Shown here: positions 243 to 5,392 of the stretch, one piece after another
Position numbering within the stretch: position 1 is the first letter of the stretch
How the letters are laid out: each line of letters begins with the position of its first letter
Source of the DNA: an uncultured archaeon
Lineage (GTDB): Archaea > Asgardarchaeota > Lokiarchaeia > Sigyniarchaeales > Promethearchaeaceae
Assembly (NCBI GenBank): GCA_964426185.1
Contig: CAYRPF010000038.1
Location: 18,848 to 29,549, forward strand
DNA: 10,702 bases
Direction: 5' to 3'
The notes under the pieces: generated by a model
Told to the model about the DNA's origin: nothing
What the model saw: only the letters and a program-made list of their open reading frames with translations
The model's database searches: none
Translations under genes and position numbers: made by a program

Positions 243-1610
243 ATGGCGAAAGTAGCGTTCATGCAATTAGCTTCATGTTGGGGGTGCCATCAATCACTTT
301 TAGATGCACAACTAACCCTTTTGCATGTCTTGCCCGAATTAGAATTCGTGTATTGGCCGGCCGTTGTAGACTTTAAGCTGGATGATTTAAAAGGTTATCC
401 TGACGGTTCGGTAGATGTCGGGTTTTTAGAAGGGTTTTGTCGGACTGAAGCTGATGTTGCCAATGCCAAATTAATGCGGCAAAAATGCAAGATCATAGTT
501 GCGATGGGCTCCTGCGCAGTATTAGGGGGAGCGCCAGGGATGGCCAATCTTTTCTCACGAGAAGAATTGGAAACCCGAAAATTTATGGATGAAGAATTTG
601 TTGATGCTGGATCTGTGGTTCCAACTGAACATGTGCCAAAAATACTTGATGCAATTCCAGATACTCATGATGTGGTAAAAGTAGATGTCGACTTACCTGG
701 ATGTCCTCCGAAAACTGGAAATATTGTGGGATTAATTGCAGCAGTCTTGGCTCAAATTGATACTAAAGTCGATGCATCTAAATCTATGTGTGATGTATGT
801 CCGCTTTCCACTTGTCTTCTGGATGAGGGCAAATTGTGCTATGGCCCCATCACTGCAGTAGGGGACCCCGTTGGACGAATTGCTGATGGATATCCTGTAT
901 TGGGTGAATTTGGATTAACGAAGGCAGTCCATCAATCAAATGCCGAAAAGCTATTTAATAAAATCTTGTCTAAACCATTTGATGCCGAAGAAGTGCGGAA
1001 ATCAGTAGAAGCTTTGATGTTCGTGCTGGGAAGTAATCCATTGGGTTTCTTGGCTAAAAAGGCAGATCCAGTGCGACGAATTCGCTTAGATCCGGAAAGT
1101 TTAACCACGAAATTGGTTCAAAACAAAGAAATTGTGGATTTTACCGCTGATGGATACCCTGAAATGGTAAATCATATTATCGGAGCCGTCATGGCAGACT
1201 TAAAACGTAATCCACTTTATGAAGATTCGGCCAAAACGGTTTGCTCTTCTTGCGAACGAAATCTAAAAGATAAAGAAGTAGTGCGATACATTCGGGATTA
1301 TGAAGGTTTTCCCGACCAAAAAACTTGCTTCTTACTACAAGGATATGTCTGCATGGGACCGTTGACCTCTACCGGATGCGGTGCGACTTGTATTCGGGCG
1401 AATTCTCCATGTCTCGGATGCTATGGTCCTGCTGAAAATGTGGATGACTACGTGAGTAAAGCTACTAGTTATTTTCCTTCGATTTGCAAAGATACTCCAG
1501 AAAATATCACCGCCTTCTTTAAGGATACTGCGGGATTATTCGGGCGCTTCTGCATTCCCACCAGCAAATTAGGGCATAAATTGTCCGATACTCCCATGGA
1601 GGAAAAGTAG
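243..1610 (+). CDS. mvhG: [NiFe]-hydrogenase small subunit, F420-non-reducing (MvhG/VhuG-like), extended by an internal duplication of the Fe-S domain
   Basis: Proximal-cluster motifs SCWGC, EG, GSCAxxGG and LPGCPP. C-terminal CSSC...CFLLQGYVCMGPLTSTGCGATC...PCLGCYGP is typical of group 3 small subunits. 455 aa versus about 300 aa usual. Confidence 0.9.
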   Translation: MAKVAFMQLASCWGCHQSLLDAQLTLLHVLPELEFVYWPAVVDFKLDDLKGYPDGSVDVGFLEGFCRTEADVANAKLMRQKCKIIVAMGSCAVLGGAPGMANLFSREELETRKFMDEEFVDAGSVVPTEHVPKILDAIPDTHDVVKVDVDLPGCPPKTGNIVGLIAAVLAQIDTKVDASKSMCDVCPLSTCLLDEGKLCYGPITAVGDPVGRIADGYPVLGEFGLTKAVHQSNAEKLFNKILSKPFDAEEVRKSVEALMFVLGSNPLGFLAKKADPVRRIRLDPESLTTKLVQNKEIVDFTADGYPEMVNHIIGAVMADLKRNPLYEDSAKTVCSSCERNLKDKEVVRYIRDYEGFPDQKTCFLLQGYVCMGPLTSTGCGATCIRANSPCLGCYGPAENVDDYVSKATSYFPSICKDTPENITAFFKDTAGLFGRFCIPTSKLGHKLSDTPMEEK

Positions 1611-1621
1611 GTGATGAAAAA

Positions 1622-2140
1622 ATGGTAAAAGTAGATTTAAACCTGAAACGTGCCGTATTGGATTTGATGATAGATGGAGATAAAATATCCTACTGTTTCC
1701 AATGTGGAAAATGCAACGACGTGTGTCCCATTTCTGCCCGCTGGGGTTCCCGTTATAATCCCAGAGATATCGTTTTGTTCTCCGCCTTGGGCTATAAGGA
1801 GGCACTGGTTAACGCGGTGGTAAGAGATCCATTTATCTTATGGGGCTGCACCACTTGTGAAACATGCGATGAGAAGTGTCCCGCGGAAATTCCGATCACA
1901 GATATAATTTCTATGTTGAAAAATCTTTCAGTTTCTTTAGGAGTTACGCCGGATTTCTATCCGAGTTCTGCCAGTCAGATTATGGAGCACGGTATGGCCA
2001 TTCCGGTGCAAGCTGCGGTGGAAAAGCGCCGTGAAAAATTAGGTATTGGAATTGCACCAGAAATTCCAGTCGATGAAGTGCAGAAAATCATGAAAGCCAC
2101 CGGTATTGAAAAACTGGTGAAAAAGGAGGAAAGTGCATAA
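1622..2140 (+). CDS. hdrC: Heterodisulfide reductase subunit C (2x[4Fe-4S])
   Basis: CFQCGKCNDVCP and WGCTTCETCDEKCP ferredoxin motifs, YNPR motif, directly upstream of hdrB. Confidence 0.92.
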   Translation: MVKVDLNLKRAVLDLMIDGDKISYCFQCGKCNDVCPISARWGSRYNPRDIVLFSALGYKEALVNAVVRDPFILWGCTTCETCDEKCPAEIPITDIISMLKNLSVSLGVTPDFYPSSASQIMEHGMAIPVQAAVEKRREKLGIGIAPEIPVDEVQKIMKATGIEKLVKKEESA

Positions 2141-3024
2141 TGACAGAATATAAATTATTCCCGGGCTGTTTTATTCAAAATCGAATTCCATTTATTGAAG
2201 CCTCTGCGAAATTTGTGTTTGAGCAACTGGGTGTGCAGCAATCAGCCGGTAAATTTGGATGCTGTCCTAACCCAGTCGGTTTACGCTTTGTAGATGAAAA
2301 AACTTGGGCTGCTCTCGGAGCTCGCAATCTAGCTGAAGCGGAGGCGGAAGGAAAACCCATAATGTCGTTATGTAATGGTTGTTATCAATCCTTGGCGGTA
2401 GTGGATCACGAACTTAAACACAACGCCAATTTAAAATCCGAAGTAAACAATATTCTAGCCGAAGTGGGTAAAGAATACAAAGGAACCATCCGCGTGGAGC
2501 ATTTTGTCAGAGTACTGCATGATGAGGTGGGATTGGAGGCTATAAAGAGCAAAATTACCAAACCTCTCACCGGCTTGAAAGTGGCTTTGCATCCCGGTTG
2601 CCACTATGCTCGACCTTCTCATATTCTTAAGGGAGAAGATCCCTTCGATTTGCACTATCTACGGGATTTGGTAGAAGTTACCGGCGCTACGGTAGTGGAT
2701 TATCCTCAAGAAGAATTATGTTGCGGAAATGGTGTTCGCAATTCTGATCCTTATACTGCGAATACTATGCTGAAAGCTAAAATTGACGGCGCTTTAGCCG
2801 CCGGAGCCGATTGTTTTACTGTAAATTGCCCTGCTTGTTTTCAACAGATGGATGCCGAACAGCGTAATTTGAAAGAATTGGCAGAAGAAGGGCAAGAATA
2901 CAAGTTTCCAACGTTTTATATTACAGAATTACTGGCGATGGCCATGGGAAAGACACCGAAAGACATCGGAGTGAATTTTCATCGAAATAAAGGGAAAAAT
3001 GCTCTAGGAAAGGTGGGATTATAA
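2140..3024 (+). CDS. hdrB: Heterodisulfide reductase subunit B (two CCG domains)
   Basis: FPGC...GCCP...ARNL...LCNGCY and HPGCH...LCCG...NCPACFQQMD. TAATG stop/start overlap with hdrC. Confidence 0.93.
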   Translation: MTEYKLFPGCFIQNRIPFIEASAKFVFEQLGVQQSAGKFGCCPNPVGLRFVDEKTWAALGARNLAEAEAEGKPIMSLCNGCYQSLAVVDHELKHNANLKSEVNNILAEVGKEYKGTIRVEHFVRVLHDEVGLEAIKSKITKPLTGLKVALHPGCHYARPSHILKGEDPFDLHYLRDLVEVTGATVVDYPQEELCCGNGVRNSDPYTANTMLKAKIDGALAAGADCFTVNCPACFQQMDAEQRNLKELAEEGQEYKFPTFYITELLAMAMGKTPKDIGVNFHRNKGKNALGKVGL

Positions 3025-4361
3025 TGAGTCCAGATAAAGTATATGAAGTAGAACCTGTAACAAGGTTAGAAGGGCACGGTGGTTTACGTTTAGTGCTGGC
3101 TGAAGATGGAAAGACTGTAAAGGATGTTCAATTTAATATTACCAGCACCCGCTTCTTTGAAAAGCTCTGTGAAGGTAGATTTGCAGAACATGTTCCACGG
3201 ATTACAAACAGAATTTGCGGTATTTGTCCAGTACCTCATCACCTCGCAGCAACCAAATCTGTAGAAAAAGCATGGGATGTAGAAATTCCCCCAGCCGCCT
3301 ATAAATTACGGCAGTTATTCATGAACGCAAAGCAGTATAGCAGTCATTTATTGCATTTTTTTGCATTAGCTGCTCCCGATTTTCTCTACGGTCCTTTTGC
3401 CCCAGCTGCAAAACGAAATGTAGTGTCTGTAATCAAAGATATGCCCGATGTTGGAGCCATGGCTTTGAAAATGATGGATTTCGGTCAAAATATCTGTGCA
3501 GCCATTGGTGGAAAAGCCGTGGGACCAATTGCAGGTATTGTAGGTGGTATGCGTAATCCACTTTCATCGGATGCTCGAGATGGTTTTCTCGCTCAAATTC
3601 CTGAACAACTCGAATACGTAAAGAAAACTGTAGATCTCGCCAAAAAAGTAGTTACTGATTATTGGGATGTAATTGCTAACCTTGCTGTAACCGAAACTTA
3701 TTATTGCGGTGTGGCTAAAAAGGTTAACGGAGAACTCGTGCATGAAATTTACGATGGTGATTTGGTGGTTGTCACCCCCGACGGCGAGAAGAAGGTTTAC
3801 GATCCCCAGAATTACTTAGAAGCCATCGGAGAACATATTCCTTCCCACTCCTATGCAACCCACACATATTATAAACCCGTTGGATATCCAGCTGGGATTT
3901 ATCGAACCAATTCCTTGGCAATGATCAACGCTTGCGATAGAATGTCTACTCCGATAGCCGAAGATGCTCGAAAAGAACTGGTAAAAGCATGTGTCGGCAA
4001 TGGTGGAAAAGTTATTCATCACACTTTTGCGTATCATTGGGCACGAATTGTAGAGACAGTGGAAGCCTTTGAGTTGTGTGTGCAGTATCTCAAAGATCCA
4101 GATATTCTCAGTACCGATATCAAAACTTTGGATGTAAAACCCAAAGCTGGACGTGGAGTAGGGATGGTTGATGCACCCCGTGGAAATTTAATTTACGATA
4201 TGAAAACCGATACCGATGGAATCTGCCGTAAATTGAATATTTTGGTTGCCACCAATCACAACATCGCGGGTATAGAAAAGAGCGTGAAACACGCTGCCCA
4301 GCAAATTTTTGAGCAAGATGTTTTATCCAAAATTAAACTACCGGATCCTATGCTCAAGTAA
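3024..4361 (+). CDS. vhuA: [NiFe(Se)]-hydrogenase large subunit, N-terminal part (MvhA/VhuA-like), lacking the C-terminal DPCxxCxxH motif
   Basis: VTRLEGHG, RFFE, L1 motif RICGICPVPH, HWAR, APRG and VATNHN are present. The protein ends at ...KLPDPMLK with no L2 motif. TAATG overlap with hdrB. Confidence 0.92.
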   Translation: MSPDKVYEVEPVTRLEGHGGLRLVLAEDGKTVKDVQFNITSTRFFEKLCEGRFAEHVPRITNRICGICPVPHHLAATKSVEKAWDVEIPPAAYKLRQLFMNAKQYSSHLLHFFALAAPDFLYGPFAPAAKRNVVSVIKDMPDVGAMALKMMDFGQNICAAIGGKAVGPIAGIVGGMRNPLSSDARDGFLAQIPEQLEYVKKTVDLAKKVVTDYWDVIANLAVTETYYCGVAKKVNGELVHEIYDGDLVVVTPDGEKKVYDPQNYLEAIGEHIPSHSYATHTYYKPVGYPAGIYRTNSLAMINACDRMSTPIAEDARKELVKACVGNGGKVIHHTFAYHWARIVETVEAFELCVQYLKDPDILSTDIKTLDVKPKAGRGVGMVDAPRGNLIYDMKTDTDGICRKLNILVATNHNIAGIEKSVKHAAQQIFEQDVLSKIKLPDPMLK

Positions 4362-4390: not shown

Positions 4391-4540
4391 ATGGTCGAAG
4401 TAAATGAAAATATTCTCAATCTACTCGAAATGGTTATTCGCTGCTATGACTGCTGATTATCTTGTGCAGCCCATATAACTATTGTAGATCCGGATGGGAC
4501 CGAACGAGTCATTCGAAAACTCGAAGTAGATTGTGGATAA
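4391..4540 (+). CDS. vhuU: Selenocysteine-containing hydrogenase small peptide VhuU (49 aa; TGA at 4454-4456 = Sec22): MVEVNENILNLLEMVIRCYDC-U-LSCAAHITIVDPDGTERVIRKLEVDCG
   Basis: Manual translation from ATG 4391 to TAA 4538-4540. NLLEMVIRxYDx-U-xSCAAH matches the L2 segment missing from the upstream large subunit, with TGA at the Ni-ligating Cys/Sec position. SD-like GAGTGA upstream. Same architecture as Methanococcus vhuA/vhuU. Confidence 0.9.
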
Positions 4541-4550
4541 TTTGCATAAA

Positions 4551-4616
4551 TCCCCCACCTGATGCATTTTTCTCGTAAACCACGGAGAAAAAGAAGGGTC
4601 TTGCCCAAGACGGGGA
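4551..4616 (+). promoter_or_regulatory. Structured 3' UTR element, candidate SECIS for vhuU
   Basis: Closing stem TCCCC(4551-4555)/GGGGA(4612-4616). Hairpin TTTTTCTCGT-AAACC-ACGGAGAAAAA (4567-4592) flanked by TGAT (4560-4563) and AGAA (4592-4595). GAA-GGG-TCTTG-CCC-A at 4593-4607. It lies between the vhuU stop and the terminator-like hairpin. Confidence 0.55.
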
Positions 4617-4632
4617 ATAAATAAAAACAAAT

Positions 4633-4653
4633 CGGTGTTATCACCGTTTTTTT
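4633..4653 (+). terminator. Hairpin plus oligo-T, putative terminator of the hydrogenase operon
   Basis: CGGTG-TTAT-CACCG followed by T7 and a further pyrimidine tract. Confidence 0.6.
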
Positions 4654-4732
4654 CCTTTCTTATTTGAAATTGAGTTGATAACCTCGAGAGAAATCCTAAA
4701 AAAGGGTGGCACCTTAACTCGTTTGACGAGCT

Positions 4733-5392
4733 GTGGTGGGGAAATCCATAACTAAGCATCATAATTGGCAATTGGTTCTGAGAAAAATTTTATCCTATAT
4801 CTACGAACCTTGTCAAGAAAATGAGATAGAATTTATTATTACGGGATCTACCTCTTCAGCACTGCAAAAATGTCCTATTATTCCAGCAAATATTGATATA
4901 TTAGTGAAGAATCCTGAAAGCGTTAATTTCATTGCAGACCTGCTGAAACCATTTGAACTCCAAACTAGGAATTCAACTGATTCTGAAGTGTGGCTTTCTT
5001 CCAAGCAAAATCGTGTATTTATCTTTGATAACAAGGAAAAAGATGAATTATGGCACATGGGGCGATGGATGGTGAAAGGAATGCAAGTAGAAGTGGCATT
5101 CATTCAATCTCAAACTATGCTAGACAAATCCCGTGAGGAAGGTTATATTTGGGAAAATGGACCGGATATGTATGCTCATACCTTGCGATTTTCTTTTCAA
5201 AATTATTTTGTTCAAGTTGTTCCTTTAGAGATCCAATTATCTTCACTATTTTTACGTGATAAATTAGATCGCATCAAAAAAATCGTTCAATTATTTATTT
5301 CTGAAGGATGTAATAGGGATTTATTGATGCATGCTTTAAAAATTTCAGATTTTCAAACAGTTCAACAATATTTCGAAAACCATCCCGCTTAG
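4733..5392 (+). CDS. Nucleotidyltransferase-superfamily (Pol beta fold) protein, function unknown; start uncertain (GTG)
   Basis: IITGSTSSALQ...PANIDILV resembles the hG[GS]x(9-13)Dh[DE]h signature, with the first Asp replaced by Asn. A later VEVA strand may carry the third acidic residue. Confidence 0.6.
   Translation: MVGKSITKHHNWQLVLRKILSYIYEPCQENEIEFIITGSTSSALQKCPIIPANIDILVKNPESVNFIADLLKPFELQTRNSTDSEVWLSSKQNRVFIFDNKEKDELWHMGRWMVKGMQVEVAFIQSQTMLDKSREEGYIWENGPDMYAHTLRFSFQNYFVQVVPLEIQLSSLFLRDKLDRIKKIVQLFISEGCNRDLLMHALKISDFQTVQQYFENHPA

Follow-up and report, generated by a model that had tools for sequence, protein, structure and literature searches.

SECIS elements of Lokiarchaeia (lokiSECIS) were described in vhuU, vhuD/hdrA and prxL genes by Mariotti et al. 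in 2016 (PMC4989117). In these elements the stem is always preceded by AUGA, AA replaces GA in vhuU, and the AUGA can double as the stop codon. The same paper proposed Lokiarchaeial SECIS as intermediates towards the eukaryotic SECIS, an idea that was extended in 2024 (PMC11227280); no SBP2 is known in Asgard archaea (PMC4989117). Asgard eSECIS-like models date from 2024 and were reviewed in 2026; the type I model of Huang, Xiao & Zhang has the core 5'-GA_[G/A]A-3', and G[U/G]AAA loop variants were reported in Asgard frhA/vhu genes (PMC11227280). The methanogen SECIS is a GAA/A loop between G-C clamps, with a lower stem (PMC11881835; PMC13188914), and a Lokiarchaeal SECIS was inactive in Methanococcus maripaludis (PMC11881835). 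Two features of kink-turns (K-turns) that bear on the present case have also been described: an A at position 2n in Kt-23 of Thelohania solenopsae, the crystal structure of which was solved bound to L7Ae (PMC3985660), and an extra base between G1b and A2b in the TPP-riboswitch k-junction (PMC4005666).

Here, we analysed a stretch of DNA of 10,702 nucleotides (the window) on contig C38 of a Lokiarchaeial genome of the genus Harpocratesius (3.26 Mb, 34% G+C). The nearest named relative of this host is its sister species Ca. Harpocratesius repetitus FW102, with a VhuA identity of 93%, and its family also includes Promethearchaeum syntrophicum MK-D1 and Lokiarchaeum ossiferum. The plus strand of the window bears an operon of hydrogenase/Hdr genes, with vhuU following VhuA, and positions 4551-4616 probably form the functional SECIS of vhuU, of the Lokiarchaeia type and eukaryote-like, a reading to which we give a probability of roughly 0.85. 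The genes and signals that frame the element are as follows.

243-1610, plus strand: [NiFe] hydrogenase small-subunit-like protein
1622-2140, plus strand: HdrC-like protein
2140-3024, plus strand: HdrB-like protein
3024-4361, plus strand: VhuA, truncated large subunit
4391-4540, plus strand: vhuU coding sequence, 49 codons, translated with TGA as U; stop codon TAA at 4538-4540
4454-4456, plus strand: Sec codon UGA of vhuU, codon 22, in the motif YDC-U-LSCAAH
4633-4653, plus strand: terminator-like hairpin CGGUG-UUAU-CACCG followed by U7, from a pattern scan

The UGA of vhuU is found at the identical codon in every orthologue seen. The closing stem of the putative SECIS (P1) begins 10 nt after the stop codon and the core 21 nt after it, and because the terminator-like hairpin lies downstream, the element falls inside the vhuU 3'UTR; in relatives, a U-run stands directly 3' of P1. 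The host genome has a complete Sec machinery, including tRNA-Sec, SepSecS (345 bits) and SelB (C10:13624-14670; 248 bits, above the curated cut-off), and it also encodes a Sec-containing selD. When a bacterial-type SECIS was looked for, no stable hairpin was found just 3' of the UGA inside vhuU (z = +1.0). Two minus-strand open reading frames overlap the SECIS region (4457-4771 and 4444-4644) and gave no Pfam match, and the region is read as RNA rather than as coding sequence because the changes in its stems are compensatory.

Several further observations were made on vhuU and its surroundings. In VhuU, a Cys rather than the usual Pro directly precedes Sec (D-C-U; window 4439-4456), and this Cys is kept in every orthologue seen, in both families. 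In one relative (locus L019 of genome G015), vhuU seems to be shortened by a TAA after ...VVDE, with the SECIS 44 nt beyond; the cause may be a frameshift or an assembly error, or the gene may be broken. On the plus strand of the window, 3' of the terminator, lies an ORF of 219 aa (4733-5392) for which there were no Pfam matches at E <= 0.1.

The vhuU 3' regions of 28 relatives were collected, each located through VhuA. The window aligned with the vhuU 3'UTRs of its own family without gaps, from 14 nt before the core through to the end of P3. In this alignment the AUGC of the window stands opposite AUGA, and the 9-nt stem arms, the AAAC...G loop and the following purine-A are common to all. 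The layout of the family is [C/U]-N-AUGA, nine stem positions, a 10-nt loop R-N-AAAC-N-N-N-G, nine stem positions, GA after the second stem arm, two bases, and then a hairpin. The large sister family corresponds exactly to the published lokiSECIS, with the stop UGA lying within GGAUGA, a 9-bp stem, the loop AAAAAUAAUAG and AA. This homology to the vhuU elements of relatives bears out the proposal of the initial annotation, made from the letters alone, that a eukaryote-like SECIS of vhuU lies here.

A covariance model (R1) trained on six family members, with the host genome and the sister species left out, matched positions 4556-4614 in a search of the window (31.9 bits, E 3.4e-7), and nothing else in the window scored below E = 1, so that by this model there is no better SECIS elsewhere on the transcript. 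Across the whole 3.26-Mb genome, the top match of R1 was again the vhuU element, followed by the SECIS of hdrA-vhuD (29.1 bits). The model is narrow: the classic Loki-family vhuU elements stayed beyond its reach at E 0.01, and it recovered only six of 30 vhuD loci at E <= 1; for these two groups, comparison relied on anchored scripts and visual inspection. Against Rfam, the complete window returned no SECIS family and no credible family at E <= 10; the lokiSECIS elements of Mariotti et al. were likewise without a match to curated eukaryotic SECIS models (PMC4989117). A crude motif finder also gave ATGC...AA matches at -18, which are false cores in the coding region and dropped out under a stricter layout.

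The minimum free energy (MFE) fold of 4548-4620 is a three-way junction of three helices, P1, P2 and P3, at -20.3 kcal/mol, with pair probabilities of 0.66-0.76 for P1, 0.66-0.93 for P2 and 0.66-0.86 for P3. Its parts are given here from 5' to 3'.

4551-4555, plus strand: 5' strand of the closing stem P1, UCCCC, from the MFE fold; pairs with 4612-4616
4559-4560, plus strand: 5' strand of the C-stem, C4559 and U4560, pairing with G4597 and G4596 (homology register)
4561-4563, plus strand: K-turn bulge G-A-U (L1-L3); A4562 and U4563 supply the 'AU' of the AUGA-type motif
4564-4566, plus strand: 5' side of the core, G4564 (1b), C4565 (2b) and A4566 (3b), from the ungapped alignment with AUGA-N and the model alignment
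4567-4574, plus strand: 5' strand of P2, the SECIS upper stem, UUUUUCUC; 8 Watson-Crick pairs with 4585-4592
4575-4584, plus strand: apical loop of 10 nt, GUAAACCACG, with AAAC and a terminal G
4585-4592, plus strand: 3' strand of P2, GAGAAAAA, from covariation and RNAalifold
4593-4595, plus strand: 3' side of the core, G4593 (3n), A4594 (2n) and A4595 (1n)
4596-4597, plus strand: 3' strand of the C-stem, G4596 and G4597, from covariation
4598-4611, plus strand: P3 hairpin, GUCUU 4598-4602, loop GCCC 4603-4606, AAGAC 4607-4611
4612-4616, plus strand: 3' strand of P1, GGGGA, directly abutting P3

All three helices carry compensatory changes. P1 reads UCCCC/GGGGA in the window and UCGCCC/GGGCGA in the sister species, with two positions changed on both sides, and of 15 relatives folded singly, 14 had a closing stem in their MFE; P1 is missing from the consensus because its register differs among genera. 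The upper stem consists of 8 Watson-Crick pairs and an A.G mismatch, and six of the eight pairs show compensatory changes within the family, as do three of the four modelled pairs of P3, a hairpin kept in the sister as GUCUU/AAGAU. Standard pairs make up 94-95% of cells in the nine family sequences versus 73-74% in shuffles, and ten of 14 pairs change on both sides, while controls with slid partners fall to 36-72%. On a plain, unfitted MAFFT alignment, RNAalifold by itself predicted P2 and P3, with compensatory changes in six pairs. In the apical loop, AAAC and the final G do not vary across the family alignment, and the apical stretch of relatives is an open loop of 10-11 nt; a MAFFT alignment of both vhuU families together mis-set the 10- versus 11-nt loops.

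The same architecture was recovered more widely. With P2 constrained, a three-way junction formed in 99 of 107 distinct vhuU 3' regions versus 22% with shuffled flanks, a count that is descriptive and carries no probability because the sequences are related. A hairpin at the place of P3 was present in all 107 (35% with shuffled flanks). For 16 diverse vhuD 3' regions, MAFFT and RNAalifold recovered P2 alone, because the columns of P1 and P3 differ between families. The conserved C-stem, bulge and second hairpin are a fuller definition of the fold than the published hairpin-only models; the main text of the Loki/Asgard SECIS descriptions cited here makes no mention of a second hairpin or a junction.

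These results uphold much of the initial annotation at the level of secondary structure. The sequence strings that it quoted are all present where it placed them, and the branched fold that it drew is real and conserved, including the UCCCC/GGGGA closing stem, the helix 4567-4574/4585-4592 and a loop containing AAA (4577-4579). The GUCUU/AAGAC helix that it listed as a competing structure does exist; it is no competitor, being P3 itself. An additional G4575-C4583 pair, which the annotation had placed on top of the upper helix, costs energy (-15.5 versus -17.7 kcal/mol) and lies where the loop of relatives is open. Its description of the element as non-canonical was apt, but the reason was missed, namely that the last A of AUGA has become C and the 3' GA has become AA.

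At the core, the 3' side aligns with the G-GA of L003-L009, the closest canonical relatives, in which 2n is G, and with the AA of the classic Loki vhuU SECIS. The C-stem pairs are standard in nine of nine family sequences (U-A 6, A-U 2, C-G 1 for one pair; C-G 8, U.G 1 for the other). Among 83 distinct vhuU cores, 82 have -1b.-1n paired (G-C in 70, C-G in 10) and 75 have -2b.-2n paired, and the bulge is strongly conserved, with L3 being U in 83/83, L2 being A in 79/83 and L1 being G in 77/83. At 2b.2n, these cores have A.G in 41 cases, A.A in 38 and C.A in two, the latter being the window and its sister. Measured against a standard K-turn, the vhuU element has a conserved, covarying C-stem, the G-A-U bulge and a possible G.A pair, has C.A at 2b.2n, and has a short canonical stem that ends in the junction; its sheared pairs and kink are putative.

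Two registers can be drawn for this core. In the homology register, G4564.A4595, C4565.A4594 and A4566.G4593 stack on a C-stem of U4560.G4596 and C4559-G4597; this is the MFE of the sister, and the 3-nt bulge is kept in both species. In the slipped register, the tandem sheared pairs are G4564.A4594 and A4566.G4593, C4565 is extruded, and the C-stem is 4558-4560/4595-4597; this is the MFE of the window itself, so that single-sequence folding of the two species disagrees on the C-stem register. Since slipping restores the tandem sheared pairs, it would explain the change of 2n from G to A. We lean somewhat towards the homology register. An extra 5'-strand base occurs in 19 of the 83 distinct vhuU cores. 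In the sister family (e.g. L020, L022, L023, L043), about a quarter of the classic Loki vhuU SECIS read GGAUGA-A, with a fully paired 9-bp stem and GA after it; these elements have one extra unpaired 5'-strand base by the core, and a one-base asymmetry at this point is therefore common in nature.

A broader reading is tentative and in our view rather doubtful: that Lokiarchaeial SECIS are K-turns within a three-way junction (k-junction-like), and that AUG(C)A...GAA is a re-registered K-turn with the C extruded. The full unit would then comprise the closing stem, the 2-bp C-stem, the G-A-U bulge, the sheared pairs and the second hairpin, whose loop often contains GC, and the object recognised would be the junction rather than the published simple hairpin. 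On re-registering, the old 3b.3n A.G pair would become 2b.2n and the old 2n, now A, would act as 1n, leaving the C extruded. If true, this would show which core contacts the Asgard SECIS-binding factor needs.

The core of about 80 distinct vhuU relatives and of five other SECIS of the genome is NUGA...GA or NUGA...AA, as opposed to AUGC...AA in the vhuU element of the window. Among about 110 distinct vhuU 3' regions, C at 2b is found in the window and the sister only, in two independent assemblies (the host genome and Ca. Harpocratesius repetitus FW102). When genome and metagenome contigs were scanned with VhuA, no AUGC-clade member other than the sister was found; the two best relatives from metagenomes, at 82% and 78% identity, both have NUGA cores. 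Covariation is absent inside the variant clade because only two genomes carry AUGC. The supplements of PMC11227280 contain no text on Harpocratesius, FW102, MK-D1 or AUGC.

Not one of the 25 nt of the core and the two stem arms differs between the window and its sister, while half of the loop has changed. In vhuU itself 20 codons differ, 18 of the 49 codons synonymously. After the UGA there are 13 synonymous and no non-synonymous differences, and since all 13 are synonymous, these codons have been under purifying selection since the species split; this part of vhuU is translated only if the UGA is decoded. From these comparisons we take AUGC/AA to be a genuine core under selection. The GC core, common to two species, represents a modest new variant within a kind of SECIS that is itself known (2016, 2024).

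Alternative explanations were weighed against this reading. Loss of the last A of AUGA could signify decay, in which AUGA to AUGC and GA to AA have crippled the element of a vhuU that is nearing loss or is poorly decoded. The C does stand where every other vhuU SECIS seen has an A, and published core definitions exclude AUGC. Yet neither species has lost the UGA or any part of the reading frame, the codon differences after the UGA are exclusively synonymous, and the two species have the same core and stems despite divergence at synonymous sites. VhuA, moreover, has one full-length match in the host genome (single-copy at E <= 1e-40), so no second large subunit was found that could serve as a replacement. 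We consider decay improbable. Slightly more improbable still is a core set 2-3 nt further upstream, as the initial annotation had proposed, in which UGAU at 4560-4563 stands opposite AGAA at 4592-4595 and GCA (4564-4566) is bulged. A UGA is indeed present at 4560-4562, and the G.A pairs can be drawn in this single sequence. However, the sister, with the same core, stem and AA tail, has CAAU at that place and cannot form these pairs; the AUGA of all relatives aligns without gaps with 4562-4565; and A4592 is required for the U4567-A4592 pair of the covarying helix.

It is very unlikely that the branched structure serves mainly in 3'-end formation or mRNA stability, with Sec insertion relying on something else. 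Its position 16 nt before a hairpin with U7 would suit such a role, as would the U-run that directly follows P1 in relatives. Against this, the combination of K-turn hairpin and P3 follows only UGA-containing genes in genome-wide scans, and no substitute was seen, either as a stable hairpin after the UGA inside the gene or as another model match in the window. The least credible alternative is the annotation's second proposal, a Methanococcus-type SECIS with a GAA/A loop (4593-4595/A4607) below three G-C pairs (4596-4598/4604-4606). The letters GAA-GGG-UCUUG-CCC-A are there, a GGGU/GCCC hairpin appeared in a longer fold, and with P1 and P2 kept, the GGG/CCC hairpin costs just 0.4 kcal/mol above P3. 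Its pair probability is nevertheless 0.12 versus 0.66-0.86 for P3, and it is without the lower stem adjoining GAA and A that the methanogen motif needs (PMC11881835; PMC13188914). The sister reads GAG...UCC, and other relatives have unrelated letters at this place while keeping P3. Rare GAA_A look-alikes in Asgard genes were judged likely non-functional by Huang et al. (PMC11227280). Neither of the annotation's two proposals is thus conserved even at the shortest distance, given the CAAU and GAG...UCC of the sister. A Lokiarchaeia-type SECIS with its core at 4564-4566/4593-4595 remains the reading that we prefer.

Motifs like that of vhuU were found near vhuU orthologues and near other selenoprotein genes, a circumstance on which the initial annotation had made its proposal depend. 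A pattern scan of the host genome gave five more elements with NUGA, a nine-position stem, the loop RUAAAC...G and GA, each 13-45 nt behind an ORF with an in-frame UGA: hdrA-vhuD, selD (GUGA core) and three small ORFs without a Pfam assignment. Among these elements of the host genome, only the vhuU SECIS has the C. A hairpin at the P3 position follows all five; for two of these elements the MFE fold also includes a closing stem, and for a third such a stem can be traced by eye. In two families, the vhuD SECIS of relatives share the three-arm layout, their stem sequences being unrelated. The junction is therefore general to these elements and extends beyond vhuU.

The three small ORFs of the host genome (G000) merit a brief description. 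The ORF on contig C86 (L230:167-466, minus strand), of 99 aa, contains a single in-frame UGA, within the motif RG-U-CG, and its stop codon is followed after 22 nt by a canonical Loki-type SECIS, AUGA...GA (core C86:1044); as no Pfam family matches it (best E 0.07), its product is a candidate for an unnamed selenoprotein. On C15 (L231:163-504, minus strand), a 113-aa ORF has two adjacent in-frame UGA codons (SQ-UU-GL), no Pfam match, and an AUGA...GA SECIS 16 nt after the stop codon (core C15:29746). The ORF on C42 (L232:189-767, plus strand), with the motif AQC-UU-N and again no Pfam match, has a reading frame that extends into the AUGA of its SECIS (core C42:2550).

We envisage the vhuU element working as follows. 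P1 would open into a three-way junction, with the P3 hairpin and its GCCC loop as one arm and a kink-turn as the other. The kink-turn arm would be built from a 2-bp canonical stem, the G-A-U bulge, G4564.A4595 and C4565.A4594 (instead of A.G or A.A), continuing with the A4566.G4593 mismatch, 8 Watson-Crick pairs and the 10-nt loop with its AAAC and terminal G. Folded on the mRNA, this structure may recruit the Sec-specific elongation factor and Sec-tRNASec, directly or via a K-turn-binding protein. The UGA at 4454-4456, 110 nt upstream of the core G, would then be read as Sec instead of stop, and Sec22 of VhuU would be the Sec ligand of the [NiFeSe] site. The binding partners, the real three-dimensional kink and the activity of the vhuU SECIS are what we infer from its sequence.

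The initial annotation had suggested that the element might be an intermediate in the transition from archaeal to eukaryotic Sec decoding; the claim of such a bridge for Loki SECIS is not new. The interest of the window lies rather in its SECIS as a case of natural mutagenesis: an element that appears to be selectively maintained with its second "invariant" core pair as C.A, or with a bulged C, and that may thus reveal dispensable contacts. Such genes escape pattern rules that require 5'-GA, and selenoproteins are then undercounted. The C-stem, bulge and second hairpin should be useful for model building and for binding work with L7Ae-family proteins and archaeal SelB, and the K-turn-in-junction architecture deserves a proper description.

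Among known systems, the closest is the lokiSECIS, to which the window element is homologous through the family alignment. Both lie in the 3'UTR just after the stop codon and have A-U-G-N before a nine-position stem, an A-rich loop ending in G, and AA. The window element differs in having AUGC rather than AUGA, an A.G mismatch at the first stem position, a loop of 10 rather than 11 nt (as in its whole family), and a start 10 nt after the stop codon instead of overlapping it. Compared with the Asgard eSECIS-like type I model, its upper stem is within 7-15 bp, its loop is within 8-20 nt and has the G[U/G]AAA-type start, and it resembles the AUGA_AA variant class of Lokiarchaeial hydrogenase genes; the P3 of the window falls within the internal loop of that model. 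By contrast, in the homology register it has GC where the model demands 5'-GA, and a search by that rule would for this reason skip the vhuU of the window; the requirement is satisfied only in the slipped register, with C4565 extruded and A4566 taken as the A.

With the eukaryotic type I SECIS, the window element shares a K-turn-type core with AUG-, unpaired loop adenines, location in the 3'UTR and action on a distant UGA, whereas its upper stem is far shorter, it matches no Rfam SECIS family, and its lower part is a three-way junction, not a simple helix I. The Methanococcales/Methanopyrus SECIS (GAA_A, kink-turn-like) is similar in lying in the 3'UTR of the orthologous gene and in having a purine-rich asymmetric loop as its presumed recognition site, but a GAA/A loop between G-C-clamped stems is absent from the window in any conserved register. 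In secondary-structure logic only, the A at 2n has its parallel in Kt-23 of Thelohania solenopsae, and the junction in the TPP-riboswitch k-junction, a K-turn with a third helix on its non-bulged strand. The third helix of the TPP junction enters opposite the loop; in the window, by contrast, the K-turn and the junction are set apart by two C-stem pairs.
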